A stretch of 64,000 nt of DNA, from NCBI GenBank assembly GCA_003130875.1, contig QEXY01000143.1, positions 18,338 through 82,337 of the forward strand, written 5' to 3'. The position numbers and the translations under genes were made by a program. Below the pieces are notes generated by a model. That model had not been told where the DNA came from. It ran no database searches and saw nothing but the letters and a program-made list of their open reading frames with translations. Source of the stretch: Ardenticatenia bacterium (GTDB lineage Bacteria > Chloroflexota > Anaerolineae > 4572-78 > NAK82). The stretch's first letter is position 1. Each line of letters opens with the position of its first letter. This document shows, piece by piece, positions 7,300 through 52,482 of this stretch.

Positions 7300-8415
7300 C
7301 TAACGCCCCACCTGTAGCGCCTCAGCGATCGCCGTGGCAGCCGCATCTTTCCCTGCGACCCTGTCCACGTAGTGCGCATAGACCCCTAACGTGATATTGG
7401 CGTTTGCGTGGCCCAGCTGTCGGCTCACATCCGTGATGGGCAGCCCTGCGCTGATGAGCAAACTGGCGTGGAGATGGCGGAGGCTGTGCGGTGTCACGAC
7501 CGTCACCCCGATGTGCTGGCACAGGCGCTTTAGGGTGCGTCCTACCACACTAGGGTTTAGAGGGTCACCTTGGTGATTGGCGAACATCAGCTCATCAGGT
7601 CGCCAGCCTGCACCCAATTGCTCGACCTGCCGCACCCTGTGCTGTCGCAGGATAGCCACCACCTCATCGGGCAACGTGATAGTGCGCACACCGCTGGGCG
7701 TCTTAGGGGCGGAGAAGACCCATTCGCTGCCGACCCGCTGGACATTGCGGCTTACCCGTAGCTGTCGGGTTACAACGTCCAGGTCGCCCCACCGCAGCGC
7801 CAACGCCTCGCCCAGGCGCAGCCCAGAGGCAATCAAGAGTAAATATAGCGGATAAAGCGGGTGGCTTTTCGCTCCGTCCAAGAAGCGGCGCAACTCGTCT
7901 TGCGTCCACAGTGCTCGCTGAGCATATGTATGCTTTGGCTTCACCATACGGTCGCAGGGGTTAGTGGGCAGCCACCCCCACAAGACAGCCAATACGCAGG
8001 CACGATGTAGCACCCGATAGACCTTCTGCGCCGTTCGGGTCTTGCCCGCTTTTTGCAACGGCAGGATGAGCCGCTGTATCACGACAGGGGTGAGGTGCGA
8101 TAACCGCAGGTGACCCACCGCTGGCAGGATGTGCACCCTGCACAGTTGGCGGTAGGTTTCTAAAGTGCGGGGTTTCAGGCTGGGCGTCGCCATCTCCAGC
8201 CAGGCGTTCAGCAGGTCGGCCACTGTGCGCTTGCCAGGGTCGGACAGCATACCCCCTAGGTGTGCCTGCTCCTGCAACTGCCTGAGCTTGCTGGCCACTT
8301 CCGAGCGTGTTCGCCCGTAGACAGTGCGACGCTTACCGTCCACCATCAGGCTGGCACACCAACGGTTATCACTACTGCGCCGATAAATTGACCCCTCGCC
8401 ATTGCTGCGCTTCAT
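7300..8415 (-). CDS. int: tyrosine recombinase / phage-type integrase
   Basis: 371 aa with an N-terminal SAM-like domain. The catalytic boxes are GLRLGEALALRWGD (Arg), HSLRH (His-x-x-Arg), LGH and YAHY (Tyr). Adjacent to the tRNA and attR. Confidence 0.92.
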   Translation of the reverse strand: MKRSNGEGSIYRRSSDNRWCASLMVDGKRRTVYGRTRSEVASKLRQLQEQAHLGGMLSDPGKRTVADLLNAWLEMATPSLKPRTLETYRQLCRVHILPAVGHLRLSHLTPVVIQRLILPLQKAGKTRTAQKVYRVLHRACVLAVLWGWLPTNPCDRMVKPKHTYAQRALWTQDELRRFLDGAKSHPLYPLYLLLIASGLRLGEALALRWGDLDVVTRQLRVSRNVQRVGSEWVFSAPKTPSGVRTITLPDEVVAILRQHRVRQVEQLGAGWRPDELMFANHQGDPLNPSVVGRTLKRLCQHIGVTVVTPHSLRHLHASLLISAGLPITDVSRQLGHANANITLGVYAHYVDRVAGKDAAATAIAEALQVGR

Positions 8416-8427
8416 ACCTCCCTCCCG

Positions 8428-8448
8428 TTGCTGTCAAATTGCTGTCAG
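8428..8448 (+). repeat. second copy of the TTGCTGTCAAATTGCTGTCAG motif (P side, in the integrase 5' region)
   Basis: Identical to 3940-3960. It lies 13 nt beyond the int start codon and 20 nt from attR. Confidence 0.45.
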
Positions 8449-8467
8449 GGCAGGGAGGGGGGCGGAT

Positions 8468-8564
8468 ACCACAAAATCTTGTGGTACAAAGTGACGAGAA
8501 GCGCAACAAATTGTATGTCAACGCCCCGGGTGGGACTCGAACCCACAGCACACGGCTTAGAAGG
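8468..8564. repeat. attR-type direct repeat (overlaps the functional tRNA-Arg 3' half)
   Basis: Identical to 3717-3813. It covers 54 nt downstream of the tRNA plus tRNA nt 32-74. Confidence 0.9.
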
Positions 8565-8595
8565 CCGTTGCTCTGTCCGCTTGAGCTACCGGGGC
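8522..8595 (-). tRNA. tRNA-Arg (anticodon TCT)
   Basis: Manual cloverleaf: acceptor GCCCCGG/CCGGGGC, D arm GCTC/GAGC, anticodon stem ACGGC/GCCGT, loop CTTCTAA, T arm GTGGG-TTCGAGT-CCCAC, discriminator G. 74 nt, with no encoded CCA. Confidence 0.9.
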
Positions 8596-8921
8596 ACACA
8601 GTGTCACACATGTTTTAATAAGTTTCCAATGCAGTTTTGCTGCGTTGTTGCCTATTGCTCCCTGACAGACTGCTGAAAGATTGGCTGTCGATTGGCCACG
8701 GTCGCTTTTCCTTTAACACTTGCCAAACAGAAAACTCCAGGGTTCCACGTTCGCCAGCGAGCTCCGCTGTCCTCTCGTCCGTCAGAGCGACACTTCACTC
8801 TGGCCACGAAGTGGACTGCGCAAACAACGCCGAGGCATTTATCCAATTCCATCATAACACAGGTTTTCCAAGTCTCGCAACCTTGCGGGCGCATTGAATA
8901 CATTTCAAACCAGGAGCGAGT

Positions 8922-10186: not shown

Positions 10187-12934
10187 ATGAAGGCAAATCC
10201 TGACCCCCAGAGTGCAGATGCGCATCGATTCGTCTATGTCCGCCTCGTGCGGTTGTTCACCGTGATGGCCCTGGCGTCTTTGCTGGGCCTGGCTATGACC
10301 GCTCCTGTGCTGGCCCGGATTACCAGCATATCTCGGGTGCCCACATTGCCCGCGCTTGTCCCGCTCCCGCACGTAGGGATGTACGGCGACGTTCCCGAGG
10401 GAGATGCCCTCGCGAATTTGCCTCTGCGGTTTATTGTCAATCGTGGCCAGTGGGCAGAATCTGTCCGATTTGCAGTGCCAGGGGCAGGACACATCCTGTA
10501 CTTCACACCTCGCCAGGTGATTTTCCGCATGGCCGGGAAAGAGGGAACTGCGACGTATGTGAGTCTGGCCTTTCCAGGTGCACGGGCACATCCCCATATG
10601 GAAGGCGTAACGCCGTTGCCGGGCAGTGTCAACTTCTTCCTTGGCGATGATCCGATGGGCTGGCAAGTGGATGTCCCCACTTATGCTGCCCTCGCATACC
10701 GCAATCTCTACCCAGGAGTGGATTTGATCTACAGTGGGTCTCATGGTCGACTCAAGAGTGAGTTTCGGCTGGCGCCAGGCATCCATCCCCGGGTGATCCA
10801 TCTGGTGTACTACGGCGTTGAGAGCGTTCGTGTGCTGCTAGATGGATCGCTGTCCTTACGCACGACGGATGGAGAGCTGGTTGAGGCGGCGCCGTTGGCA
10901 TACCAGGAAATCGAGGGCGTGCGTCAAAAGGTGACGGCGCGTTATGTGTTGCTTATGTCCCCGCTGCGGACACCCTTCTTCACGATGCGCCTGCCTGCTT
11001 TGGTGCGCTTCGAGGTGCGCGGGCATAACTCGAGATGGCCGCTGGTGATTGATCCCGTGCTGCGCTATGTCAGTTTCCTGGGCGGCGGCCAGGATGAATC
11101 AGGCAATGCTATCGCGGTGGATGGTGCCGGCAATGTGTACATCGTGGGAAACACCAGCTCGAATGACTTTCCTGCCCATACCGCCATCCAGGTACAGCGC
11201 CGTGGAGGTTCGGACGCCTTTGTGACCCAGCTAGTACGCGTGGGCGAGGTGTACACTTACGGCTTTTCCACTTACTTAGGGGGCAGTGCTTCCGACATCG
11301 CGCATGGCATTGCGGTGGATACTACAGGCAGTGCAGTGACCATCGTAGGCGAGACCGCTTCGGGTGATTTCCCCACCTTCAACGCACCTCAAACGATCAG
11401 CAAATGGGTCCCTGATGCCTTTGTGACACGTCTTATCACGCAGAGCGGGGCAGTCACGTTCGCCTATTCCACCTACCTGGGTGGCATTGGAGTTGATAGG
11501 GGATATGCCGTGGCGTTGGACAGCGCTGGCGATGCCGTAGTCGTCGGCGAGACCACTTCGAGCGACCTGTTCACCACCTCGACAGCGATCCAGCCGACCT
11601 GCGGTGGGGCACCTTCGCCGCCTTGCACAGATGCCTTCGTCACCCGGATCGCCAATAGCGGCGGTTACACCTTCACCTATTCTAGCTATTTGGGCGGCAG
11701 AGGCGCCGATCGTGCCTGGGCGGTCGCCGTGGACCCGGCCGGCGACAGCATCTTCGTAACAGGTGAGACCGGTTCGTCGGATTTCCCGCTGCACAACGCG
11801 CCGCAGCCGGTCTGGGGCGTGGCGGGGTTGCATCTGCCCAGCGCGGAACTGGAAGCGACCGCGGCCATCACCTATCCGGATGGGTTTGTGGTCCAGATCA
11901 CCACCAGCGGCAGCTACACCTATGCTTACTCCACCTACTTAGGCGGCACGTTTGTGGATGCCGGGCGTGGCATTGCGGTGGACAGCAGTGGCAATGCCTG
12001 GGTAACCGGTCATACAGGGTCTACCGATTTTCCCCGTACCCCGGATGCAGTGCAACCCGCGTACGGCGGCGGTGCCTCGATCGGTGTGGGAGGGGATGCC
12101 TTCCTGACCTACATTGTGGATGCCGGAGGTGTGTACACCTTTGCCTACTCCACCTTCTTGGGCGGCAGCAGTAACGATGTGGGGTATGGCCTGACGCTGG
12201 ACGGCAATGACGTTCCAGTGATTGTCGGGCAGACCTTCTCCAAGAACTTCCCCACTCGCTACGCGTTGCAGGGCAGCTTGCGCGGCGCAACCGATGCCTT
12301 TGTCACCCAGCTGGTCAACATCACCACGGCGTATACCCTGGGCCTGTCCACCTACCTGGGTGGCGGTGAAACTGACGCCGCATATGGTGTGGCAGTGGAT
12401 GCGACAGGTGACATCTACGTGACTGGTCAGACATATTCCGGCGATTTCCCAACCGTGCAAGCATTGGACGCCAGCCGTTCGGGGACGACGGACGCCTTCG
12501 TGGCACGCATCGGATGGGGTGGGCTGATGATCAGCAAGACAGCGACTCCTACCGTGGTTGCGCCTGGGCGCACGGTCACCTATACGCTTATCTTCACCAA
12601 CGACAGCCCCACCCTGGCGCAGAACGTGGTGATCAGCGATTATCTGGCGATCCCGGCCACTTTCAGCGATGCCAGCTATGTCAGCAGCGGTGCCGCAGTC
12701 ACGCCGACGGGGAGCTTCAGCTATACCTGGCAGGTTGCCGATCTGGCACAGGGCGGAGGTGGGACGATCCATGTGCTGGCCGTGCTGAGCGATGCGCTGA
12801 CGCCGGGCACGCTTGTCACCAACACGGTTGCCATCACTGGGGATGGTGTCTACACGTCGGTCTACAATGCGTCCACGGCGGTCATCACCGTGGGATATGG
12901 GGTGTACTTGCCTCTCATCAGTAAGCAGCTGTGA
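10187..12934 (+). CDS. secreted SBBP beta-propeller-repeat protein with C-terminal DUF11-type domain
   Basis: Signal-anchor FTVMALASLLGLAMTAPVLA. About 10 repeats of DAFVT.L...YSTYLGG...D.G.GIAVD..G...VTG.T.S.DFP. C-terminal ISKTATPTVVAPGRTVTYTLIFTN. Start chosen at the ATG after the RBS AGGAGGGA. Confidence 0.85.
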   Translation: MKANPDPQSADAHRFVYVRLVRLFTVMALASLLGLAMTAPVLARITSISRVPTLPALVPLPHVGMYGDVPEGDALANLPLRFIVNRGQWAESVRFAVPGAGHILYFTPRQVIFRMAGKEGTATYVSLAFPGARAHPHMEGVTPLPGSVNFFLGDDPMGWQVDVPTYAALAYRNLYPGVDLIYSGSHGRLKSEFRLAPGIHPRVIHLVYYGVESVRVLLDGSLSLRTTDGELVEAAPLAYQEIEGVRQKVTARYVLLMSPLRTPFFTMRLPALVRFEVRGHNSRWPLVIDPVLRYVSFLGGGQDESGNAIAVDGAGNVYIVGNTSSNDFPAHTAIQVQRRGGSDAFVTQLVRVGEVYTYGFSTYLGGSASDIAHGIAVDTTGSAVTIVGETASGDFPTFNAPQTISKWVPDAFVTRLITQSGAVTFAYSTYLGGIGVDRGYAVALDSAGDAVVVGETTSSDLFTTSTAIQPTCGGAPSPPCTDAFVTRIANSGGYTFTYSSYLGGRGADRAWAVAVDPAGDSIFVTGETGSSDFPLHNAPQPVWGVAGLHLPSAELEATAAITYPDGFVVQITTSGSYTYAYSTYLGGTFVDAGRGIAVDSSGNAWVTGHTGSTDFPRTPDAVQPAYGGGASIGVGGDAFLTYIVDAGGVYTFAYSTFLGGSSNDVGYGLTLDGNDVPVIVGQTFSKNFPTRYALQGSLRGATDAFVTQLVNITTAYTLGLSTYLGGGETDAAYGVAVDATGDIYVTGQTYSGDFPTVQALDASRSGTTDAFVARIGWGGLMISKTATPTVVAPGRTVTYTLIFTNDSPTLAQNVVISDYLAIPATFSDASYVSSGAAVTPTGSFSYTWQVADLAQGGGGTIHVLAVLSDALTPGTLVTNTVAITGDGVYTSVYNASTAVITVGYGVYLPLISKQL

Positions 12935-14973
12935 ACCATGGGATCGTTTTAGCCTCTCTGCGCCGCCTGTTGTGGGTGGCGGTAGGTGATGCGGAGCGCT
13001 CGGGCGTGGCAGCAACCGACCTGTGGCACTCATCCCGTATGGCGCGGTGGGCTGGCTGGGGTGTGGTGGTGCTTGCCGGAGTGCTTTATCTGCTCACGTT
13101 GGATACCGGCCTGCGTCCAGAGGAGCTACAAGGCGGCGATCTGATCACCCATCAGTATGCCCAGGTGCAGGCGCGCCCCAGCAACGCCCCCGGTTATCCG
13201 CTCTACACAATGGGGGGCTGGTTGTGGTTTCGCCTGACCGGTTTGTTGTTTGGTTGGGCGCTCAACCCGGTGCAGAGGCTGTCCAGCTACTCGACCCTCT
13301 GGGCGCTGCTTGCCCTGATCGTGCTCTATCAGCTCTGTATGCGCGCAGCACGCGGTCATTGGCCGTTGGCTACGCTGACGACGCTCTTCTACGCCGTCAC
13401 CTATTTCTTCTGGTACTACAGTGTCACCACGGAGCAGTATACCTCGGCGGTGCTGCAGACGCTATTGATCGTCTGGCTGGCGTGGCGCTGGGAAGAGGCG
13501 CTGGCGGTCGATCCGGTCAAGGCGGATCGTGCGCTGCTGTGGCTGGCGTTGCTGTGTGGCACATGCCTAGCCAACCTGGTGACCGTGCTGCTCATTCTGC
13601 CGCCGCTCCTGTGGTTCATCCTGGCCCGTCAACCCAACCTGCTGCGCCGACCGCGCCTGTTAGGACAAGCAGCTGGCCTGGCACTGCTGCCTGTACTGTC
13701 GTATGCTTATGTGTACTGGCGTGGCGCGGTGCATCCGGAGTGGCGAGGGCAAGGTAGCTGGCCGGATACGACCGCTTGGTTTCTCGATTTCCTGACCACG
13801 CACCAGGGACGAGATGAATTGGCGCCTGGCTTGACGTTGACCCCCATGTTCACGGATGAGTTTCCTGCGCTGATCTGGGGTGAGCTCACCCCGGTGGTGT
13901 TATTCGGCGGACTGTTGGGCCTGAGGTGGCTGGGGCACCGACGTGCCTTGTTCCTCGGCGGCACCTTGTTTCTGTATGCCCTCTTCTGCTGGGTGGATCG
14001 CTTTGGCAATTGGTATCAGGTTGTCATGCCTGCCTACCCGTTGGTGGCGCTGGGTTTTGCTGCTGGGATGGGCGCCCTGTTGGATAGAGTATCAACGCTT
14101 CCTCGTGTATCTCCTACAAAAGCTGGACTACAGATGTTGGTGGTGATTGTGCTGCTGGGATTGACCACTTACCGTTTCGCTATGAGCTGGCCGCGCGCCG
14201 ATCAGAGCTGGCGATCGGATGACACCGGGCTTGATCCAGGCTGGGCGATTCTGGCGGATGCACCCCCTGCGGATGCTGTGATCCTGGCACGGCATGAAGA
14301 GTGGCTGGCGCTCAGCTATCTGACCATCATCTGGGGCGTTGCCCCAGGACTCCGAACGCTGCCTGTGTGCCAGCTGCCCGCTGAATTGGAAGGGCAACTG
14401 CCTGAGGTCATTTATCTCACGCGACAGGCTGTCGCGGCACAGCCCGATTGCCTGGCCGAGCGACGTCGCTACGCTGCTGGTGCGGAGTTGATATGGACAC
14501 AAGTGCCTCCAAAGTATGCATTGCCGGACTCGGCGTATGTGGTGGCCTGGCAGCTGGGTGCGGGATTGCACGTGGTCGGTTATGAAACCGCATGGCTGCC
14601 CCAGCCGCTCACCGGCAGCACGGGGAGACCCGTGTCTGATAGGCCACGGTGGCGCCTATCGCTCTATTGGCAAACGGAAGTTCCTCTGAGGGACGACTAC
14701 ACCATCTCGGTGCGTCCTCAGCGGGGCGGAGGGCCACTTCGTGACGTGGATGGACAACCACTCATCCAGGATCACCAGCCGGTGTGGAATGCGTTCCCGA
14801 CAAGTCGCTGGCTGCCCGGTGAGGTGGTGCGCGATGATTACGTCTTCACCCTGCCCTCAGCGACCTCTCCCGATGGGGTGCATCTGGTGGTCTATCGTGC
14901 TGGGGCAGATGAACACGGGGCACCGCGTTTTGAGACAGAGGGAGAGATAGTCGTGAGATTGGGTAGCGAATGA
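12931..14973 (+). CDS. DUF2723/TMEM260-like GT-C fold membrane glycosyltransferase
   Basis: Polytopic membrane protein. The first-loop motif GGDLITHQYAQVQARPSNAPGYPLYTMGGWLWF matches the DUF2723 signature (GD...PPGYPLY). A GTG start overlaps the upstream stop; an alternative ATG is at 13039. Confidence 0.75.
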   Translation: MNHGIVLASLRRLLWVAVGDAERSGVAATDLWHSSRMARWAGWGVVVLAGVLYLLTLDTGLRPEELQGGDLITHQYAQVQARPSNAPGYPLYTMGGWLWFRLTGLLFGWALNPVQRLSSYSTLWALLALIVLYQLCMRAARGHWPLATLTTLFYAVTYFFWYYSVTTEQYTSAVLQTLLIVWLAWRWEEALAVDPVKADRALLWLALLCGTCLANLVTVLLILPPLLWFILARQPNLLRRPRLLGQAAGLALLPVLSYAYVYWRGAVHPEWRGQGSWPDTTAWFLDFLTTHQGRDELAPGLTLTPMFTDEFPALIWGELTPVVLFGGLLGLRWLGHRRALFLGGTLFLYALFCWVDRFGNWYQVVMPAYPLVALGFAAGMGALLDRVSTLPRVSPTKAGLQMLVVIVLLGLTTYRFAMSWPRADQSWRSDDTGLDPGWAILADAPPADAVILARHEEWLALSYLTIIWGVAPGLRTLPVCQLPAELEGQLPEVIYLTRQAVAAQPDCLAERRRYAAGAELIWTQVPPKYALPDSAYVVAWQLGAGLHVVGYETAWLPQPLTGSTGRPVSDRPRWRLSLYWQTEVPLRDDYTISVRPQRGGGPLRDVDGQPLIQDHQPVWNAFPTSRWLPGEVVRDDYVFTLPSATSPDGVHLVVYRAGADEHGAPRFETEGEIVVRLGSE

Positions 14974-15242
14974 AAAAGTGCAGACATTGCAATGGATGGC
15001 AGAGGGATTTCCTAGAGGTATGCGGATCTCAACGCGTATCCGCTGCTCGGGTTAAGCTTTACAATTTTCTTTTTTCAGATATCATACGGGCCGGGCGGTC
15101 GTTTGACATCAGGCTATCTATCTCGTGGATGAGGTGACATAGAGATTTCCACCGAGAATTTTGTACCCCTCCATGTTGTTATTCTGCATCAAAGTTCCAG
15201 CGATCAGCCACAGAGCATTTCACAGTTTCTTGAGGTGTCAGT

Positions 15243-16565
15243 ATGACAGCAGTCGATGATCAACCCGTTCTTCTCAGGCGCATTGCGGATCGCACGGCAC
15301 ACATCAGCATCCTGGGACTGGGCTACGTGGGGCTTCCGCTGGCTGTGGAGTTCGCACGTTCTGGATTGCGGGTGACCGGAATCGATGTGGATGCCGAAAA
15401 GGTGAAGACCCTCAATGCTGGCCGGAGCTACATACTGGACATCGCGGATAAGACGGTCAAAGAATTGGTGCGTACCGGTATGCTCTCCGCCACGACCGAC
15501 GTCGCGACATTGCGGGAGGCAGATGTCGCGATCATTTGTGTTCCCACCCCTCTCAACAAGACCCGGGATCCGGATATTTCCTACATACTGTCCGCTACCG
15601 AGCAGGTGGTGCGCTACGCACATCGGGATATGTTGGTGGTGCTCGAAAGCACTACATATCCCGGCACCACAGAGGAGATCTTGTTGCCGCGTTTTGAGGC
15701 GGCGGGCTTTGCCGTCGGCAAGGATTTCTTCTTAGCTTTCTCGCCCGAGCGCATCGATCCAGCCAATCCCACATTTGGAGTGCGCAATACACCCAAGGTG
15801 GTCGGTGGCATCACGCCGCAGTGCGCCCGCGTGGCAGTTGCGCTGTATCGCTGTGCCGTGGATCACATCGTGCCGGTTTCGTCGACGCGCGCTGCGGAGA
15901 TGGTCAAGCTGCTGGAAAACACGTTCCGGGCGGTCAACATCGGCCTGGTAAACGAATTTGCGATCATCTGCGATCGGTTGGGGCTGGATGTCTGGGAGAT
16001 CATCGAGGCCGCTTCCACCAAACCATATGGGTTCACCCCGTTCTATCCCGGACCCGGCCTGGGCGGACACTGCCTCCCGATCGACCCACTCTATCTTTCC
16101 TGGAAGCTCAGGGCACTGCGATATAACACGCGTTTCATCGAGTTAGCGGATCGGGTGAACTCCGAGATGCCCTACTATGTGGTTGAGAAGATCGCTGCCG
16201 CCTTAAATGCGCGTCGTCAGGCGGTCAACGGTGCACGTATTTTGGTGCTGGGTGTGGCGTACAAGCGCAACGTGGGCGATGTGCGTGAGAGCCCTGCTCT
16301 CGAGATCATCAATCTATTGGTTGAGCGTGGCGCGGATATTTCGTACCACGATCCATATGTACCGCGTCTGCAATATGATGGTGGCACTCTCGACTCGGTA
16401 GCATTGGACTCTCAGGTGTTGTCCAACGCCGATTGTGTTGTGATTGTCACGGATCACTCCGGTATTGATTGGCAACTTGTCGTCTCCTATTCCCGCCTTG
16501 TTGTCGACACGCGCAACGCTCTCAAAGGCATACCCCCTGGCAAGGCGCAGGTGGTGAAGTTATGA
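15243..16565 (+). CDS. nucleotide-sugar dehydrogenase (UDP-GlcNAc/ManNAc 6-dehydrogenase family, WbpO/TviB-like)
   Basis: 440 aa with the Rossmann motif ISILGLGYVGLPLAVEFA. GPGLGGHCLPIDP contains the catalytic Cys. Confidence 0.88.
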   Translation: MTAVDDQPVLLRRIADRTAHISILGLGYVGLPLAVEFARSGLRVTGIDVDAEKVKTLNAGRSYILDIADKTVKELVRTGMLSATTDVATLREADVAIICVPTPLNKTRDPDISYILSATEQVVRYAHRDMLVVLESTTYPGTTEEILLPRFEAAGFAVGKDFFLAFSPERIDPANPTFGVRNTPKVVGGITPQCARVAVALYRCAVDHIVPVSSTRAAEMVKLLENTFRAVNIGLVNEFAIICDRLGLDVWEIIEAASTKPYGFTPFYPGPGLGGHCLPIDPLYLSWKLRALRYNTRFIELADRVNSEMPYYVVEKIAAALNARRQAVNGARILVLGVAYKRNVGDVRESPALEIINLLVERGADISYHDPYVPRLQYDGGTLDSVALDSQVLSNADCVVIVTDHSGIDWQLVVSYSRLVVDTRNALKGIPPGKAQVVKL

Positions 16566-17536
16566 ACGTTAAGAACAGCGAAGAAACTCATTGTTATTTG
16601 GTCACCGGTGGTGCTGGCTTCATCGGATCCCACTTGGTGGAAGAACTTGTGCGTCGTCGCCAGTATGTACGGGTGCTGGACAATTTCAGCAGCGGTCGTC
16701 GAGAAAATCTGGCTCACCTAGCCGGCCATGTGAAGGTCATCGAAGGAGATATCTGCGACCTTGCCACCGTGCGACAGGCGATGGAAGGAGTGGATTATGT
16801 GCTGCACCAAGCAGCGCTGGTTTCCGTGCCCGGCTCGGTGGCAGATCCTCTGAAAACGGATCAGGTCAACGTGAGGGGCACGCTCAACGTGTTGCTGGCA
16901 GCACGGGATGCCCACGTGCGTCGAGTGGTGTTTGCCTCTTCATGTGCGGTGTACGGAGATAACCCGGTTTTGCCTAAGGATGAACGGATGCCCCCCGAAC
17001 CGCTCTCACCTTATGCGGTTTCCAAGCTGGCGGGCGAGGGGTACTGTCGTGTATTTCATTACGTGTATGGTCTGCCGACCGTGGTGCTGCGTTATTTCAA
17101 TGTGTTCGGCCCACGTCAGGATCCGCACTCCCCATATGCCGCCGTCATCCCCAAATTTATCCATTCTGCCCTCCACGGTCGCGCGCTGACCGTATTTGGT
17201 GATGGACAGCAATCGCGCGACTTTGTCTACGTCGCGAATGTGGTGGCGGCGAACCTGCTGGCCTGTCAGACGAATGCGGCAGTGGGACATGTGATTAACG
17301 TGGCGAGTGGACAGAGCTATTCACTGCTGGAGCTCATTGACCACCTGAAGGGTATACTGGACGAGAATGCGTTACAGGTCAATCATATGCCACCGCAGCC
17401 CGGCGACATACGTCACTCGCAAGCGGACATCCAATGCGCCAGGCAACTGCTGGGATACGTGCCCCAGATTGACTTCGCCACTGGCCTGCGTGAGACAGTG
17501 GCCTATTTCCGGCAGCAGATGCTTCGGAGTGATTGA
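16562..17536 (+). CDS. NAD-dependent NDP-sugar epimerase (WbpP/TviC-like)
   Basis: LVTGGAGFIGSHL, SSCAVYG and the YAVSK catalytic motif. The ATG at 16562 overlaps the upstream stop (ATGA); the longer start in the track is unlikely. Confidence 0.88.
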   Translation: MNVKNSEETHCYLVTGGAGFIGSHLVEELVRRRQYVRVLDNFSSGRRENLAHLAGHVKVIEGDICDLATVRQAMEGVDYVLHQAALVSVPGSVADPLKTDQVNVRGTLNVLLAARDAHVRRVVFASSCAVYGDNPVLPKDERMPPEPLSPYAVSKLAGEGYCRVFHYVYGLPTVVLRYFNVFGPRQDPHSPYAAVIPKFIHSALHGRALTVFGDGQQSRDFVYVANVVAANLLACQTNAAVGHVINVASGQSYSLLELIDHLKGILDENALQVNHMPPQPGDIRHSQADIQCARQLLGYVPQIDFATGLRETVAYFRQQMLRSD

Positions 17537-19071: not shown

Positions 19072-20040
19072 CTACCAATTCTTGCGCCATCGTGTGAAGC
19101 AGATGGAGGCAATCTCCCACTCCAAATCGCAATATGCTGTGTCGGACAGAGATGGTGCAGCGGGGTTTTTGGCCTCTTCGTATGTGCTTGCCTGGACGAT
19201 GCGCACTTCCCAGCGGCACATCGATCTGGGATCGAGTGGGCTGCTCAGGATAATATCGAAAGCCCCGGGTTCATAGGGTTCACTGGGTGCGTATAAGTTG
19301 ATACCGGAAGGGTTGGAAGCCAACACAGTATCACCGCACTTCGCTTGCATAAAGACGCCCTGTACCGGTTGTCCGGCGGTATCCACCACCTTGCCTCGGA
19401 TTTGTGCCAGTCCGGCGTTCCATTGTCCTTCAAAGCCGGTGGGCTCAAATTGCCATTGAGGAGTAGGAGGTACCGGCGGCGGAGGAGGCTCAGTGGGTGC
19501 GGGCGGAGGTGGAGGCGGCGGTGCCTCGACGTAGGGAACAGCATCCGTGTTCTGTGCAGTGCTGTACTCCGGATTAGCCGAGATCCATCCCTTTCCATCG
19601 GCCGCCCCGGCATAGGCGATCTGCCACCAGGAGCTGTCCGCATTGCGACCGATGACTTCGACAGTGCTTCCAGGTGTCAACGAACCTATCTGCGGGTAGT
19701 TCACTCCAGGACCTGCTCGCACCCGCAGACCCACACGGACTGTCGCGGAGGGAAGCGCAGGCGTAGGTGTCACAGGGGGGGGCGTCGGAGTCGGGAGCAC
19801 CACCGGTGTGGATGTCGGCACCAGATATTGTGTCGGTGTCGCCGTAGGCGTCGCAGTGGGTGTGGCAGTGGGCGGCTGGACCGGGGTCAAGCGCGCCAGT
19901 ATCGTGAAAGTGGGCATCGGCGTACGTGTCGGGACGGACAATCTGGCACGATGCGTCAGCACAACGGTCGCCAATGAAGCGAAAATGATATAATTGACAA
20001 GCACCAAGACCGCAACCAGTGCCCATTGTCGACGAGTCAC
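19072..20040 (-). CDS. membrane-anchored PT-linker protein with SH3b domain and 4-Cys C-terminal domain
   Basis: N-terminal TM WALVAVLVLVNYIIFASLATVVL, an RTPMPTFT motif, TPTATPTATPT linkers, SH3b (LRVRAGPGVNYPQIGSL...WWQIAY) and a poly-Pro segment. The C-terminal domain is paralogous to the end of 48930-49658. Confidence 0.8.
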   Translation of the reverse strand: MTRRQWALVAVLVLVNYIIFASLATVVLTHRARLSVPTRTPMPTFTILARLTPVQPPTATPTATPTATPTQYLVPTSTPVVLPTPTPPPVTPTPALPSATVRVGLRVRAGPGVNYPQIGSLTPGSTVEVIGRNADSSWWQIAYAGAADGKGWISANPEYSTAQNTDAVPYVEAPPPPPPPAPTEPPPPPVPPTPQWQFEPTGFEGQWNAGLAQIRGKVVDTAGQPVQGVFMQAKCGDTVLASNPSGINLYAPSEPYEPGAFDIILSSPLDPRSMCRWEVRIVQASTYEEAKNPAAPSLSDTAYCDLEWEIASICFTRWRKNW

Positions 20041-47125: not shown

Positions 47126-47407
47126 TTGCCCTGCCTCCCCAGCTCATCTTTTAGCATGTGCATTATATCTACGGTCTCTCTTTCCGAAAGGGATGAGACT
47201 GGCGTATTTGCAAAGCTTTGCACTCTGTTATTTAAAGACGTTACTTCGTACTTTGTGGTTCCCCGCCGCATCCGCCGTAAACGGAACTCCTCCCTGCCGT
47301 TTAGCGTCTTCCATCAAGGGTGAAATCCTCTGGGTCGCGGGTCGTGCGTTCGAACCTAAATTTTGGAAGGGGGTTCTCCCTTGTGTTATAATGGTGCGAA
47401 GTTCTTA

Positions 47408-48160
47408 ATGAACCGAAAGGAACAGCCAGTGTCTCCTAACCGAAGGTTCTCTATCTTGTTGCTGATCGTAACTGCGCTTCTCATTGCGGGTGCAGGGTGT
47501 GTGTTGACTGATACCCTATCCCGTCGCTTGGGGCGTCAGGCGCGCACGCCGCTGGCCCAGGTGTCACGCACTCCGAGGCCTACTTTCACTCCAACGCCAC
47601 CCTGGACACCGACGCCAACTGACACTCCCACACCGACGATGACGTCGACACCCACGAACACGCCCATCCCAACGGACACCCCGATCCCGACAGACACGCC
47701 CACCCCAGAACCGACAAACACTCCCAGGCCGCGCCCCAAGCCACCTACGGATACGCCGGCGCCGCCACCTACGCCGGAATACCCCTTCGCGGTGATCGAG
47801 ATCAGCCCGCCTGAGTTCACTCGCACCACCAATCCAATGATCGTGGTGTATGTCGCCATCACAGATCAGAACAACACACCTCTGGGCGGCTACAGGGTGG
47901 TCGGCGATAGTGCTCAATCACCTTATCAATCTCACGTGGAGTCTCCCCCCTCCTGTTATGATTGGTGTGCTACCAGCGGCCGGGGGGGATACATCAAGGC
48001 AGCTAATGTGAAGTTTGAGCCTGGTCCTTTCATTGACGGCACGTGGAACATTTATCTGGTTGACGGAGCGGGACAACAAGTTTCGCCAGTTGTGCCGCTC
48101 ACCTACAGCACAGATCCTAATGCTTGGCGCTGGGATTTTGTGTTTTTCAGATTGCGATAG
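47408..48160 (+). CDS. PT-linker lipoprotein-like protein, C-terminal beta-rich domain type B
   Basis: N-region RR plus LLLIVTALLIAGAGC. SRTPRPTFTPTPP motif; a ~70-aa Pro/Thr linker; TPEYPF junction; ~125-aa C-terminal domain. A likely promoter (TGtTATAAT at 47383-47392) is close to the ATG. Confidence 0.75.
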   Translation: MNRKEQPVSPNRRFSILLLIVTALLIAGAGCVLTDTLSRRLGRQARTPLAQVSRTPRPTFTPTPPWTPTPTDTPTPTMTSTPTNTPIPTDTPIPTDTPTPEPTNTPRPRPKPPTDTPAPPPTPEYPFAVIEISPPEFTRTTNPMIVVYVAITDQNNTPLGGYRVVGDSAQSPYQSHVESPPSCYDWCATSGRGGYIKAANVKFEPGPFIDGTWNIYLVDGAGQQVSPVVPLTYSTDPNAWRWDFVFFRLR

Positions 48161-48176
48161 CCCCGGTGTTCGCTAG

Positions 48177-48893
48177 ATGATGAGACGTGCGCTGATCCCC
48201 TGGCTTCTTTTGCTTGTGATGCTGGGCGGACTGGGTTGTTCGGTGGGAACGTTGATCGTGCGCGCGCCCACGCCCACCCGACAACCTACCCGTACGCCGC
48301 GGCCGACCTTTACCTTCACGCCTAATTGGACACCGACGCGGGTGCCCACACTCACGGCAACACCTACCCAGACACCGACTGAGACGCCAGTTCCCACTGA
48401 GACTGCTACCCCCACGCCTGTACTTGAGGAGGTCGCTGAGCCTGCCGAGCCAGATGAACCCCCACCACCACGAGATACGCCCACGCCTGAACCACCCACA
48501 GCAACACCCACGCCTCAGTATCCTTTCACAACCGAGGTCTTCGTTTTCGACACGCAGGGCGCCTTGGAGACGCGGGTGACGGCTTACGTGGTCGAAGTTT
48601 TTGACGCCAGCACCGGCCATTTTAAGGATCTATGGGATTATCAAATCGTGCTGATCGACCCAATGGGTGGTGAGCATCTGAGCAATATGTCCGGTGGCAA
48701 GAATCACACAGTGGGCCCAGGTTTGGGCAACGATCGTTGGTTCAATACCGAGGTAAAGTTCTCCCCTTATACGCCGGGCCATTATAAGGCCTGGCTGGTC
48801 AAGGATGGGGTACAGCAATCGTCAGTGGTCGAGTTTGATATGTCTCCTTCTCCTACACAATATGTGCATATCGACTTTCTGTTGAAGCATTGA
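48177..48893 (+). CDS. PT-linker lipoprotein-like protein, C-terminal domain related to type B
   Basis: MMRRALIPWLLLLVMLGGLGC; TRTPRPTFTFTP motif; TPQYPF junction. The C-terminal block VKFSPYTPGHYKAWLVKDGVQQSSVV resembles VKFEPGPFIDGTWNIYLVDGAGQQVSPVV of the previous gene. Confidence 0.75.
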   Translation: MMRRALIPWLLLLVMLGGLGCSVGTLIVRAPTPTRQPTRTPRPTFTFTPNWTPTRVPTLTATPTQTPTETPVPTETATPTPVLEEVAEPAEPDEPPPPRDTPTPEPPTATPTPQYPFTTEVFVFDTQGALETRVTAYVVEVFDASTGHFKDLWDYQIVLIDPMGGEHLSNMSGGKNHTVGPGLGNDRWFNTEVKFSPYTPGHYKAWLVKDGVQQSSVVEFDMSPSPTQYVHIDFLLKH

Positions 48894-48929
48894 ACCACTT
48901 TCGTGAACGAGGAGCTACGCTGAGCCAGG

Positions 48930-49658
48930 ATGAGAGCACAGAAGAGCTTTATCACCTTGCTGGTCGTCCTATTGATGGTAGGAGTATTGGGGTGTGTACT
49001 GACAGATCGACTGTCTGGGCGACGTAGCACACGTCCTGTCTCAGTAGTGCGGCAGGTGGCCACACGCACACCGTTGCCCACCTTTACACCGACTCCTCCG
49101 GCTACACCCACCCCGCTCCCTACGCTGACACCTACGAACACGTCCACGCCGACGCCGACGTTGACACCGACACCAACGGACACACCTACTCCAACCAACA
49201 CGCCACGACCCAAGCCCAAACCAACGGAGCCGCCACCGGAGGCACAGGCTCCGCCACCTCAGCCGACTCCTGAGTACCAATTTTCACCAGAGCCTTGGGA
49301 AGGACAGTGGAACGGTGGATTGGCACAAATCCGAGGCAAGATTCGTGATCGCAATGGACAACCTGTCAACGGCTACTTTGTGCAGGCGCGCTGTGGGGGT
49401 ACTGTATTGGCGTCCAATCCATCTGGCATCAATCTCTATGCTCCCGACAAACCTTATGAACCTGGTGCCTACGATATGATTCTCAGCTCGCCGTTGGATC
49501 CCAACTCAATGTGTCGATGGGAGGTGCGTGTGGTACAAGCTTCCAATTATGAGGAGGCCAAAAACCCTGGAGCGCCTTCCCTTTCGCCTGTGGGATACTG
49601 TGATTTGAGCTGGGGCGAGATGTCCATCTGTTTTGCTAATTGGCGCAAGAACTGGTGA
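48930..49658 (+). CDS. PT-linker lipoprotein-like protein with 4-Cys C-terminal domain (type A)
   Basis: LLVVLLMVGVLGC; TRTPLPTFTPTPP motif; TPEYQF junction. The C-terminal ~125 aa are highly similar to the end of 19072-20040 and end in NWRKNW. Confidence 0.8.
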   Translation: MRAQKSFITLLVVLLMVGVLGCVLTDRLSGRRSTRPVSVVRQVATRTPLPTFTPTPPATPTPLPTLTPTNTSTPTPTLTPTPTDTPTPTNTPRPKPKPTEPPPEAQAPPPQPTPEYQFSPEPWEGQWNGGLAQIRGKIRDRNGQPVNGYFVQARCGGTVLASNPSGINLYAPDKPYEPGAYDMILSSPLDPNSMCRWEVRVVQASNYEEAKNPGAPSLSPVGYCDLSWGEMSICFANWRKNW

Positions 49659-51742
49659 CCGAACGGGACGAGCGTTACGACACTTTCATCACAGCACTGC
49701 TGGTCACAGCCCTGGTGATGTTGGCCTGTGTGGTCAGCGGCATAGGTGCGTACTTGTCGCTGCGGATGGCGCCGCTACATCACATACACGCATCCGTCAC
49801 CACTGTGACTCCGACGCCTACCGCTCATGTTCTGGCTATCCCCGACTCTCCTAAGTTGCACCCAACACTGCCAGCCGCTGTAGAAGGAAAGGGATATCTG
49901 TCGCGAGGTGGACAACCTGAAGGCATCGGCTTAACAACGGAGCAGCTGTTGGACGAGGTCGAGATCCCAGTGCGCGACCGTCTGGCATTGGCACAACGCC
50001 TGAAGCTGTCCGATACCCCCATTCCGTCTGTCGTCAATGCGGTAACACCGATTTATCGCCTAGGGGAGCAACACAATTTCTGCGTGCTGGATAGTGACGC
50101 GGTACGATATACGTGGGCAGTTGCCACGTTGCGCTATGTAGGCGATCATAGCTATTGGTGGGTGCAAGATGGTCACTCTGTGAGCGACGAAGCAATCACT
50201 GCCTCGGCACAGGAGTTCGAACAGCGTATTTACCCCACGAACCGCGATTTCTTTGGTGGGGAGTGGAGTCCGGGAGTGGATAATGATCCGCGTATCCATA
50301 TCTTTTTGGGCGATGTGCCGGGTGTAAGCGGATATTTCTACAGTGCTAATGAATACTCCTGCTTGATCAATCCATGTAGCAACGAGAAGGAGATGTTCTA
50401 TATCAACATCAATGCTGTGTCGCCGGGCAGCGAGGATCTCCATATCACTTTAGCCCACGAGTTCCAACATATGATCCATTGGCATCACGATGCCAACGAG
50501 GAAACGTGGGTCAATGAGGGGTTGTCCAATTTGGCCGTTGAGCTCAATGGATATGAAACGGCCGACATCACCTACGCTTTCAGCCAGCGACCTGATACCC
50601 AGTTAAACACCTGGGCAGAGGCGCCTCAGGACACTTTTCCTCACTATGCTGCCAGTTATCTTTTCATGAGCTATTTCCTCGAGCGCTTTGGCGAGGACAT
50701 AATGCGTGAGGTAGTAGCAGAACCGGAAAATGGGATCGCTGGCTTCAACGCTGCTTTAGCGCGAGCACGACGGCCATATCGTTTCGCGGATGTCTTCGCC
50801 GACTGGGTGATTGCAAACTATTTGGACGACCCCACCACCGGGTATGGGAATTGGGGCTATCGGCGACTGGATCCACAGCCGGTTAAGATCGAGGCAGAGT
50901 ATAGTGCCTACCCTGTTGAGGTAAGTGGCCAGGTCGGCCAGTATGCCACCGATTATTTCAAGTTCGGTGGCATGGGAGATCTGACAATCGAGTTCGAAGG
51001 TGTCCAGCACGTCAGGATTGCCCCCAATGAGCCCCATAGCGGTACCTTTCAGTGGTGGTCGAATCGCGGCGATGATTCGGACATGACATTGACGCGCTCT
51101 TTCGACCTTTCCCATGTGAGTGAGGCAACGCTCGAATTTTGGCTCTGGTACGACATCGAAAAGGGATGGGATTTTGCATACGTTGAAGTGTCCGAGGATG
51201 GCGGCAAGACCTGGACCATCTTGCCCGGTCGTTATACCGAGACAGATAACCCTAGCGGCAACAGTTTCGGCGCAGCGTGGACCGGCATCTCAGGGGGAGG
51301 TGAGGTGCCCCAATGGGTACATGAGCAGGTGGATTTGACCCCATATACGGGACGTCAAGTGCAAGTCCGATTCGAGTACATCACGGATGATGCGGTAAAC
51401 CGCGTGGGTCTCATGCTAGATGACATCGCGATCCCCCAGCTTGGTTACTTCGACGATGTCGAGGCTGGAGATGGTGGCTGGGTGGCCCATGGGTTCGTGC
51501 GCGTTGACAATATATTGCCACAGCGCTACTTGGTCCAGGTCATTCAGAAGGGGGATACCGTGCGGGTTCAGCGCATGACCCTCGATCAGGATAACCGCGG
51601 CCGGTTGACACTCCGCGGAATGGGCAGGGCATTTTCTGAAGCAGTGCTGGCCGTAAGCGGTATAACCCCGTTTACAACCGAACCGGCTCTGTACCGCATA
51701 CGTGCCAGCTTGATATCTCCTTCCGACGAGACACAGCCTTGA
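49640..51742 (+). CDS. membrane-anchored HExxH zinc metalloprotease (InhA/M6-like or MA-clan)
   Basis: N-terminal TM ITALLVTALVMLACVVSGIGAYL. Zinc site TLAHEFQHMIHW...WVNEGLS. The C-terminal beta domain LWYDIEKGWDFAYVEVSEDGGKTWTIL resembles InhA-type domains. The start is uncertain (TTG 49640 or GTG 49655) and overlaps the upstream gene. Confidence 0.75.
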   Translation: MAQELVTERDERYDTFITALLVTALVMLACVVSGIGAYLSLRMAPLHHIHASVTTVTPTPTAHVLAIPDSPKLHPTLPAAVEGKGYLSRGGQPEGIGLTTEQLLDEVEIPVRDRLALAQRLKLSDTPIPSVVNAVTPIYRLGEQHNFCVLDSDAVRYTWAVATLRYVGDHSYWWVQDGHSVSDEAITASAQEFEQRIYPTNRDFFGGEWSPGVDNDPRIHIFLGDVPGVSGYFYSANEYSCLINPCSNEKEMFYININAVSPGSEDLHITLAHEFQHMIHWHHDANEETWVNEGLSNLAVELNGYETADITYAFSQRPDTQLNTWAEAPQDTFPHYAASYLFMSYFLERFGEDIMREVVAEPENGIAGFNAALARARRPYRFADVFADWVIANYLDDPTTGYGNWGYRRLDPQPVKIEAEYSAYPVEVSGQVGQYATDYFKFGGMGDLTIEFEGVQHVRIAPNEPHSGTFQWWSNRGDDSDMTLTRSFDLSHVSEATLEFWLWYDIEKGWDFAYVEVSEDGGKTWTILPGRYTETDNPSGNSFGAAWTGISGGGEVPQWVHEQVDLTPYTGRQVQVRFEYITDDAVNRVGLMLDDIAIPQLGYFDDVEAGDGGWVAHGFVRVDNILPQRYLVQVIQKGDTVRVQRMTLDQDNRGRLTLRGMGRAFSEAVLAVSGITPFTTEPALYRIRASLISPSDETQP

Positions 51743-52482
51743 CGCTCAAGCTCTCCATTATCGTTCCGGTCTACAACGAGATTGCCACTCTGCGTGAAAT
51801 CCTGAGCCGTGTACGCCGGGTGGATGTAGCAGTATGGGTCGACTTCGGCCCCTATAGCTATCTCGAGCAACCAATCCGCCTGGAGAAAGAGATCATCGTG
51901 GTGGATGATGGCTCACAGGATGGCTCACGAGAGATCATCCAGAGTGAAGAAGCAGCCGGCCATATTCGCGCCTTCTACCATGCCCGTAATCAAGGCAAAG
52001 GGTCAGCAGTACGTACAGGTTTACAACATGCCACGGGTGACTTTATCGTGATCCAGGATGCTGATCTGGAATACGACCCCCGTGAGTATCGCATCCTACT
52101 ACAGCCCCTGCTGGAAGGACGTGCTTACGTTGTTTATGGGTCACGCTTTCGTGGAGGACCCACCAAAGCGATGTTCTTCACGCATATGCTGGGCAATCGC
52201 TTTCTCACTTTGGTGACGAACATTTTGTACGACTCGATCATCACGGACATGGAGACGTGTTATAAGTGCTTCTGTGCAGATGTGGTGCGCAACATTTCGC
52301 TTCGGGCGCGCGGCTTCGAGTTCGAACCGGAGATAACGGCTAAGGTGCTCAAACGAGGTTATCGTATCTACGAGGTGCCCATTTCGTACACCGGGCGCGA
52401 ATTCCACGAAGGTAAGAAGATCAGCTGGCGTGACGGTTTTAAAGCCCTGTGGACGCTTATTAAATATCGCTTTGTGGACTAA
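51739..52482 (+). CDS. family 2 glycosyltransferase, polyprenol-phosphate sugar synthase-like (DPM1/GtrB type)
   Basis: LSIIVPVYNE...IIVVDDGSQDGS...IQDADLEYDP...YGSR. The TTG start overlaps the upstream stop. Confidence 0.8.
   Translation: MTLKLSIIVPVYNEIATLREILSRVRRVDVAVWVDFGPYSYLEQPIRLEKEIIVVDDGSQDGSREIIQSEEAAGHIRAFYHARNQGKGSAVRTGLQHATGDFIVIQDADLEYDPREYRILLQPLLEGRAYVVYGSRFRGGPTKAMFFTHMLGNRFLTLVTNILYDSIITDMETCYKCFCADVVRNISLRARGFEFEPEITAKVLKRGYRIYEVPISYTGREFHEGKKISWRDGFKALWTLIKYRFVD

Follow-up and report, generated by a model that had tools for sequence, protein, structure and literature searches.

A nine-residue stalk-start element behind the predicted membrane anchors of Anaerolineae surface proteins

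What is the role of a nine-residue motif that stands in the same place, shortly behind the membrane anchor, in otherwise unrelated exported proteins? The question is raised by four genes in a 64,000-nucleotide stretch of contig QEXY01000143.1 (here called the window; G+C content ∼57%) from an Anaerolineae (Chloroflexota) bacterium. The open reading frame (ORF) listing places three of them, A, B and C, next to one another on the plus strand and the fourth, D, at a distance on the minus strand. All four products are predicted to be surface proteins that are tethered N-terminally to the membrane. Each is built, in the same order, from an anchor, a variable spacer of 10–25 residues, the element (R/K)TPxPTFT(P)TP, a disordered Pro/Thr (PT) stalk and a β-sandwich domain of ∼125 residues. 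The stalk linkers are 59–65 residues long with a P+T fraction of 0.58–0.73, and D additionally holds an inserted bacterial SH3 domain (PF08239, residues 104–155). In a six-frame translation of the window, the leader motif [STA]RTP.PTFT and the junction motif TP[EQ][YW][PQ]F, which joins the linker to the terminal domain, occur four times each, all within A–D and always in the order leader motif, linker, junction. The shared architecture that a preliminary description of the window had proposed from the letters is thus borne out. The closest genome relatives among the matches listed are Anaerolineae metagenome-assembled genomes (MAGs), represented by locus L089 for A–C and locus L102 for D.

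The leader motif is conserved far above the sequence on either side of it. Across 37 full-length orthologues of D, mean identity is 0.86 in the motif, against 0.38 in the spacer before it and 0.42 in the linker after it; the transmembrane helix and the globular domain reach 0.79 and 0.77, respectively. Motif frequency was determined in a separate set of 91 homologues that have an N-terminus and were recognised via the C-terminal domain only. [RK]TPxPT[FYW] lies within 55 residues of the hydrophobic segment in 65 of these 91 proteins and TPxPT[FYWL] in 80, and because most of the others retain PTFT or TFT, the core of the motif can be described as PTFT with an upstream (R/K)TPx. Frequencies among the homologue-search matches of C are partly inflated by the word-based collection of candidates, an effect that was avoided through the domain-recognised homologues, a DNA-pattern scan and an index-free profile search. 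At the DNA level, the codon pattern CGN ACN CCN NNN CCN ACN TTY AC has four matches in the window compared with 0.00 expected from 100 dinucleotide-preserving shuffles. Chance low-complexity PT sequence, which the preliminary description had considered as the refuting alternative, is ruled out as the origin of the motif by the shuffles, the confinement of the window's sites to A–D, the conservation in the D orthologues and a residue bias at position x that is described below. These comparisons, together with synonymous differences between the motif codons of A–D, argue that RTPxPTFT is a genuine, selected and position-specific element.

The codon pattern of T-R-T-P-x-P-T-F-T was scanned over 185,579 species genomes and yielded at least 127 matches in at least 120 loci, for which the taxonomy labels of MAGs were used as deposited. 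Sixty of the 127 matches listed form an N-terminal class, in which the motif follows an N-terminal hydrophobic segment by 12–56 residues (median ∼17) and is preceded by a lipobox-like Cys in 36 cases. The remaining matches listed are in internal PT linkers (38) or out of context (29) and are spread over many phyla. The N-terminal matches correspond to 57 loci listed, 55 of which are labelled Chloroflexota (Anaerolineae, Caldilineaceae, Ardenticatenales and others); the other two are an 'uncultured bacterium' and a 5-kb contig binned as Gemmatimonadetes. The residue at x distinguishes the N-terminal copies from the internal ones. The 60 N-terminal matches listed have L, R, K, V, M, Q, F, I, A, S or W at this position, and neither T nor P occurs there. 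Among the 38 internal matches listed, x is T in 19 (Fisher P = 4e-10) and T or P in 22 (P = 5e-12). An index-free search of 1.84 billion representative proteins with a 52-position leader profile returned 100 matches at E <= 1e-3, all of which aligned near the N-terminus.

The passengers behind the motif are diverse and include DUF3048, a PF00756 esterase, a GH5 cellulase, GH99, Big_9 and Big_2 (Ig-like) domains, SH3 domains, LysM repeats and several β-sandwich families. The distance from the Cys to the start of the motif is 18–24 residues in A–C and 11–50 residues across the matches listed. In some cases, for example in D, which continues as FTILARL, and at L015 and L051, the motif occurs without a PT linker after it. 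The motif is not confined to the family of A–D and is best described as a predicted 'stalk-start' element that stands behind the lipobox or anchor in exported proteins of many unrelated kinds and is, among the loci listed, nearly exclusive to Anaerolineae. At this level, the notion of a fixed export or anchoring module from the preliminary description holds, as the same leader precedes unrelated passengers in Anaerolineae. A separate lipoprotein family of 420–520 residues, encoded at seven of the loci, combines an SH3 domain with an unrecognised C-terminal domain. In this family, the motif lies 31–34 residues after the Cys and is preceded by a degenerate copy (…SRTPRLTATP…TRTPLPTFT…).

The anchors themselves are of two types. 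Lipobox, hydropathy and start-codon assignments were rule-based, using a regular-expression implementation rather than SignalP or LipoP. The lipobox rule, in the style of PROSITE PS51257, asks for K or R within the first seven residues, an uncharged h-region and a Cys at positions 15–35 in the pattern [LIVMFWSTAG]2-[LIVMFYSTAGCQ]-[AGS]-C. A, B and C match this rule at Cys31, Cys21 and Cys22, respectively, and D, which contains no Cys, does not match and reads as a signal anchor. The rule-based test agrees with the earlier assignment of a predicted lipoprotein signal peptide to A–C and a signal-anchor helix to D, and the D helix is conserved. The helix (residues 1–28; window positions 19957–20040, minus strand) has the consensus RRQWALV..L.L.NYIIFASL with 79% identity across the 37 orthologues. 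Its conservation matches that of the globular domain, which is unusual for a passive anchor. In A-type and C-type leaders and in many relatives, a second conserved element, C-x-L-[TS]-[DE]-x-L-x-x-R, directly follows the lipobox and begins with its Cys (47498–47530 in A and 48993–49025 in C). This element is amphipathic-looking and ends in a basic residue.

The C-terminal domains of the four proteins had been described as different, a view that did not survive profile and structure comparison. Homologue searches gave 348 matches for C, from Anaerolineae and Chloroflexota MAGs; the A domain had 21 matches and the B domain 11. The terminal domains of C and D are ∼75% identical. Pairwise BLAST between the domains was too weak to decide on homology and was replaced by hhalign and iterated profiles. 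In profile–profile alignment with hhalign, the A-type and B-type domains are related at E = 4e-5. Iterated profiles were built from C-terminal 128-residue segments with reversed decoys as a control; A and B merged at iteration 2, and C/D-type members were reached at iterations 3–4 with zero decoy matches. Because these profile links join A, B and C/D without decoys, the domains are not different cassettes. In Pfam, no family was found at E <= 0.1 for A, B and C, and only SH3_3 for D; NCBIfam gave no domain match for A–D. GltJ profile matches on A–D were discarded as spurious products of low-complexity sequence.

AlphaFold2 models of the C and A domains are all-β, with predicted local distance difference test (pLDDT) scores of 95.3 and 94.4, respectively, and the junction Phe begins the first strand in both. 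Foldseek comparison, with the PDB as the structure set searched, placed both models on the same fold set, namely CnaB pilin domains of BcpA and SpaC, intradiol dioxygenase sandwiches, the carboxypeptidase D regulatory domain and SlaB, with best E-values of only 2.7e-3 and 8.6e-3 and template-modelling (TM) scores of 0.3–0.5. The models thus point to a transthyretin/CnaB-like topology, and A, B and C/D end in domains of one divergent β-sandwich superfamily of ∼125 residues without a Pfam or NCBIfam model. A 35-sequence alignment of C/D-type domains shows P3, Q6 and P9 of P-x-[YFW]-Q-[FY]-x-P at >= 90% conservation, and the domain alignment also contains the pattern G-x-[IV]-x-D-x-x-G-x-P-[VL]-x-G. 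The junction P-x-[YWF]-[QP]-[FY] accordingly forms the first strand of the domain together with its N-terminal cap, is nearly invariant and does not constitute a separate signal. The suggestion that TPEYPF is a processing, sorting or glycosylation signal, made in the preliminary description, is not supported by the alignment or the models. The proteins stop directly at the end of the β-sandwich (…WRKNW, …FRLR and …LLKH) and show no C-terminal sorting signal. One shape, TPxxxF[TS]P, is common to the leader motif and the first strand, with TPLPTFTP and TPEYQFSP in C, 47570–47593 and 47771–47794 in A and equivalent sites in B and D. The leader motif could mimic a strand of the β-sandwich or donate one to it.

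A, B and C are closely packed with two further genes, which encode a membrane-anchored InhA-like metalloprotease and a GT2 glycosyltransferase. The gaps are 16 nt between A and B and 36 nt between B and C, after which the protease gene overlaps the end of C by 19 nt and the GT2 gene overlaps the protease stop by 4 nt. This tight packing suggests a single transcription unit. The protease combines an HExxH motif with an InhA-like MAM domain, and its catalytic-domain profile matches are weak (Peptidase_MA_2, 0.008; NCBIfam MXAN_6640 HExxH, 1.9e-12, below cut-off). At locus L001, whose C protein is only ∼52% identical, the same order of A-type, B-type, C-type, InhA-like and GT2 genes is present, and a 75% identical GT2 orthologue holds the same position. 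Locus L012, from a more distant lineage, has A-type, B-type and C-type genes, the last with an SH3 domain, followed by InhA. Synteny of the InhA-like gene with A–B–C is seen in L001–L003 and L012. A, B and C are ancient paralogues whose fixed order, together with an InhA-like metalloprotease gene and usually a GT2 gene, extends to distant Anaerolineae.

The best promoter-like site of the region, TTGGAA-18-TATAAT with an upstream TG, precedes A; it is a consensus match only, and such sites are no more numerous here than expected from shuffles. Since the site ends 15 nt before ATG 47408, this start was favoured over TTG 47363. The placement implies a very short leader for A, without an obvious Shine–Dalgarno sequence. 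A search upstream of A for an RNA or tRNA remnant found none.

The conserved gene order also bears on how the leaders came to be alike. In the preliminary description, the leaders of A and C were called nearly superimposable, and the genes were viewed as a product of recent cassette shuffling that put different C-terminal domains behind a fixed leader. The likeness of the two leaders stands at the protein level. At the DNA level, they are ∼53% identical, the motif codons of A–D differ synonymously and no long DNA repeat is present, which rules out gene conversion or DNA repeats as the source of the similarity. Protein-level likeness and the weak pairwise BLAST between the A or B domain and C speak for shuffling. 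However, the domains are homologous and share a common fold class, the A–B–C order is kept across deep lineages, including those in which C has diverged to ∼52% identity or acquired SH3, and in orthologues each leader subtype accompanies its own domain type. Given the diverged leader DNA, the synonymous codons and the tie between leader type and domain type, recent exchange was rejected, and this account of A–D is regarded as very improbable.

Table 1. Positions of the genes, their parts and neighbouring features in the window.
Feature	Coordinates	Strand	Remarks
Gene A, 250 aa (from ATG)	47408-48160	+	Lipoprotein-type leader; Cys31 codon 47498-47500
A, SRTPRPTFT	47564-47590	+	
A, PT stalk	47591-47770	+	
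A, β-sandwich	47771-48157	+	Includes junction TPEYPF
Gene B, 238 aa	48177-48893	+	Lipobox Cys21, codon 48237-48239
B, TRTPRPTFT	48288-48314	+	
B, stalk	48315-48509	+	
B, terminal domain	48510-48890	+	Includes junction TPQYPF
Gene C, 242 aa	48930-49658	+	Lipobox Cys22, codon 48993-48995
C, TRTPLPTFT	49062-49088	+	
C, stalk	49089-49265	+	
C, terminal domain	49266-49655	+	Includes junction TPEYQF
Gene D, 322 aa	19072-20040	-	Conserved signal-anchor helix
D, TRTPMPTFT	19903-19929	-	
D, SH3b	19576-19731	-	
D, junction TPQWQF	19447-19464	-	
D, C-type β-sandwich	19075-19464	-	
Promoter-like site TTGGAA-18-(TG)TATAAT	47363-47392	+	
InhA-like metalloprotease, membrane-anchored	49640-51742	+	M6-type, HEFQH; PF20773 at 2e-37
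GT2 glycosyltransferase	51739-52482	+	
TMEM260-like GT-C protein O-mannosyltransferase homologue	12931-14973	+	PF11028 at 4.9e-13; ∼4 kb from D
UDP-glucose/GDP-mannose dehydrogenase	15243-16565	+	
NAD-dependent epimerase/dehydratase	16469-17536	+	
Polytopic membrane protein, 481 aa	17565-19010	-	Family without assignment; immediately downstream of D
PKD/PA14 protein, 1286 aa	43265-47125	-	Transmembrane-anchored
DUF7948/SBBP/DUF11 protein, 947 aa	10091-12934	+	
Phage-type integrase	7300-8415	-	
tRNA-Arg(tct)	8521-8596		

The surroundings of the A–B–C cluster differ between genomes. The gene for ribosomal protein L9 (rplI) adjoins A/B-like motif clusters at five loci from different lineages, and dnaA lies near the cluster in L001. 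The window has a PKD/PA14 gene in place of the rplI linkage. Its product contains seven PKD, two PA14 and one SH3 domain together with several PT linkers.

Genes of glycosylation type are found both in the operon and near D. The best NCBIfam similarity of the operon GT2 is to the polyprenyl-phosphate sugar synthases AglJ, ArnC and PpgS and the streptococcal protein-glycosylation enzyme PgfS. Elsewhere, at three loci (L006, L051 and L083), the gene for a D-like or LysM motif protein is flanked by a PMT_2 GT-C gene on one side and a distinct GT2 on the other, and the same distinct GT2 subfamily is also adjacent at two further loci (L049 and L069). A PMT_2 gene is present near the A–B–C cluster in L001. 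Within 6 kb of D, the TMEM260-like GT-C, dehydrogenase and epimerase genes form a glycosylation-type cluster (12931–17536, plus strand). A large surface-type protein with DUF7948, SBBP β-propeller repeats and DUF11 is encoded near these glycosylation genes, and the region 7300–8596, where an integrase gene adjoins tRNA-Arg(tct), may mark the border of a mobile element that has integrated here. The 481-aa polytopic membrane protein is kept beside D orthologues with 80% identity in L102 and 56% in L124, and it has no match in Pfam (E <= 10), NCBIfam or PDB sequences. The transmembrane helix of D, strongly conserved as it is, could have this protein as its partner.

O-glycosylation of the stalks is the favoured explanation for the motif, proposed because of the similarity of the operon GT2, the PMT_2 and GT2 genes that flank motif genes and the TMEM260-like cluster near D. 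The motif would mark the point near the membrane at which the stalk begins, or prime it for O-glycosylation. A polyprenyl-phosphate sugar would be made by a GT2 and passed on to Thr residues outside the membrane by a GT-C enzyme of the PMT_2 or TMEM260-like type. The glycans would stiffen the stalk and shield it from proteolysis, also by the co-encoded protease, and the passenger domain could thereby be displayed beyond the wall. The conserved protease and the paralogous β-sandwiches would together form a surface module. As candidate acceptors, the stalks are predicted to be extracytoplasmic, Thr-rich, 59–65 residues long and placed directly after the anchor and motif. We infer the link of the GT2 and GT-C genes to glycosylation from gene proximity. 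The explanation as a whole, which combines the architecture, the operon, the clade-restricted stalk-start motif and the glycosylation role, is given a tentative probability of roughly 0.45.

Several observations weigh against this explanation. Glycosylation of the stalks is read here from sequence context, and every NCBIfam match of the operon GT2 is below the curated cut-off. A GT2 cluster occurs in 9 and PMT_2 in 4 of the ∼57 eight-kb loci listed, which are modest raw counts, and GT2 and PMT_2 genes are numerous in Chloroflexota. PMT-type enzymes are not known to require a sequon. Thr glycosylation gives no obvious reason for a conserved Arg/Lys and Phe, residues that would equally suit a protease or a binding site. 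Of 288 neighbouring ORFs that have an N-terminal hydrophobic segment, only 4 contain the motif, and in the window it is missing from the 1286-aa PKD/PA14 protein, the InhA-like protease and the LysM-M23 peptidase. It thus marks a subset of exported proteins and not all PT-stalked ones.

The conserved basic and aromatic residues inside an otherwise permissive linker would also be explained if a membrane-proximal protease cut at or near (R/K)TPxPTF and shed the stalk together with its passenger. The enzyme would be the InhA-like protease for the A–B–C operon and a housekeeping protease for other motif proteins. Translation of the InhA-like gene is coupled to that of C, an arrangement also kept in L001 and L012, and glycosylation-controlled cleavage of a linker has a precedent (PMC12041528). 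The InhA-like genes, however, adjoin the A–B–C operon only (the window, L001–L003 and L012) and are absent at the other ∼55 motif loci listed, which makes it unlikely that this enzyme reads the motif in general. Proteases as a rule cleave Pro-rich sequence poorly, and the transmembrane helix of D equals the globular domain in conservation, which argues that the anchor stays in the working protein. Release by proteolysis is therefore judged unlikely. Clade restriction, a fixed place behind the anchor and a lack of dependence on the passenger would be expected of a sorting or attachment signal, by which an Anaerolineae-specific machine, possibly including the 481-aa protein, routes tethered proteins to the wall or sheath, retains them or covalently attaches them there. 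The motif strings have no match in Pfam, NCBIfam or the searched literature, and a conserved polytopic membrane protein without a known family stands beside D orthologues. That protein is tied to D-type genes only, no candidate enzyme recurs across the motif loci listed, and a Cys–motif distance of 11–50 residues is loose for a machine that works at the membrane; sorting or attachment in this broad form is considered rather unlikely. The more pointed proposal of an Anaerolineae-specific N-terminal sorting or attachment signal read by a dedicated envelope machine, for which the 481-aa protein or a specialised GT-C would be the candidate, is likewise held to be doubtful. If true, the envelope machine would determine whether a tethered protein is displayed on the filament surface, fixed to it or released from it, and the system would be an N-terminal-tether counterpart to C-terminal sortase and exosortase systems.

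A further reading is that the motif has no specific function and is the inherited or compositionally favoured first unit of the PT linker in this clade. The same nine residues recur inside long internal PT linkers of many phyla (the 38 matches listed), and the periodicity of PT codons creates 60–70% self-similarity throughout the linkers. Yet the motif is conserved far above the linker sequence on both sides, T and P are excluded from x in the N-terminal copies but occupy it in 22 of the 38 internal copies listed, and the motif also occurs where no PT linker follows. Because it is common to non-homologous proteins, common descent cannot explain it. A motif without function is consequently thought quite improbable, and stalk O-glycosylation is retained as the preferred explanation.

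Little is understood of the envelope of Anaerolineae, filamentous bacteria that are abundant in wastewater sludge, in sediments and in hot springs. The motif provides a simple sequence handle with which their tethered surface proteome can be listed from metagenomes. It stands at the stalk base of lipoproteins and anchored enzymes, including esterases, glycoside hydrolases and LysM/SH3 wall-binding proteins, and points to an unstudied step of surface display, be it glycosylation, processing or sorting. The A–B–C–protease–GT2 operon and the β-sandwich family are conserved, predicted envelope components.

A literature search on the motif strings, on Anaerolineae/Chloroflexi lipoproteins and on PT linkers retrieved no description of the motif; the (R/K)TPxPTFT element, the C-terminal superfamily and the A–B–C–InhA–GT2 operon are not described in Pfam-A, NCBIfam release 20 or the searched literature. 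Known systems resemble individual parts of the architecture. The terminal domain is similar to transthyretin-like, carboxypeptidase-regulatory and CnaB domains in the fold matches of the A and C models and in the G-x-[IV]-x-D-x-x-G-x-P-[VL]-x-G pattern. It differs from these families in the missing Pfam match of A–C, the weak Foldseek scores and its own conserved features, namely the P-x-Y-Q-F cap, Cys pairs and a C-terminal ANW[RK]KNW. Proteins that host CnaB-type pilin or adhesin domains carry a C-terminal LPXTG sortase signal, which is not present at the ends of A–D. The leaders of A–C and of most motif proteins have the basic n-region, hydrophobic h-region and [LVI..][ASG..][GAS]-C of lipoprotein signal peptides processed by Lgt and LspA. 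Because D-type proteins and several other families bear the motif behind an uncleaved-looking, Cys-less signal anchor, the motif is independent of lipidation. The lipoprotein export signal (LES) of Bacteroidota and Lol-avoidance signals occupy positions +2 to +5 after the Cys and are acidic or single-residue. Like these codes, the element is a short motif downstream of the Cys that precedes unrelated passengers in a single clade, but it lies 11–50 residues from the Cys, combines a basic with an aromatic residue within Pro/Thr sequence and also occurs in non-lipoproteins. Secreted glycoside hydrolases have similarly long (PT)n-like spacers between modules, such as the PT boxes of Cellulomonas fimi, which are internal and repetitive and lack a conserved start motif; the internal motif matches listed with x = T belong to this ordinary PT-linker class. 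The nearest concepts are post-lipobox sorting codes of the LES type and linker O-glycosylation, and the anchors fit ordinary lipoprotein or signal-anchor export. In actinobacteria, Ppm1/Pmt O-mannosylates lipoproteins and PT linkers. Streptococcal O-glycosylation proceeds through GtrB with PgtC2 and through the Pgf pathway, for which protection of the linker from proteolysis has been proposed (PMC12041528). The likeness to such GT-A and GT-C systems lies in a disordered extracytoplasmic segment rich in hydroxy amino acids beside a lipid or helix anchor and in nearby genes for a GT-C and a GT2 resembling polyprenyl-phosphate-sugar synthases. Those systems have no reported discrete motif, whereas a nine-residue motif with R/K and F starts the stalk here; the glycosylation proposed from the genes would act on stalks that are N-terminal tethers, in contrast to the mostly C-terminal tails of streptococci.

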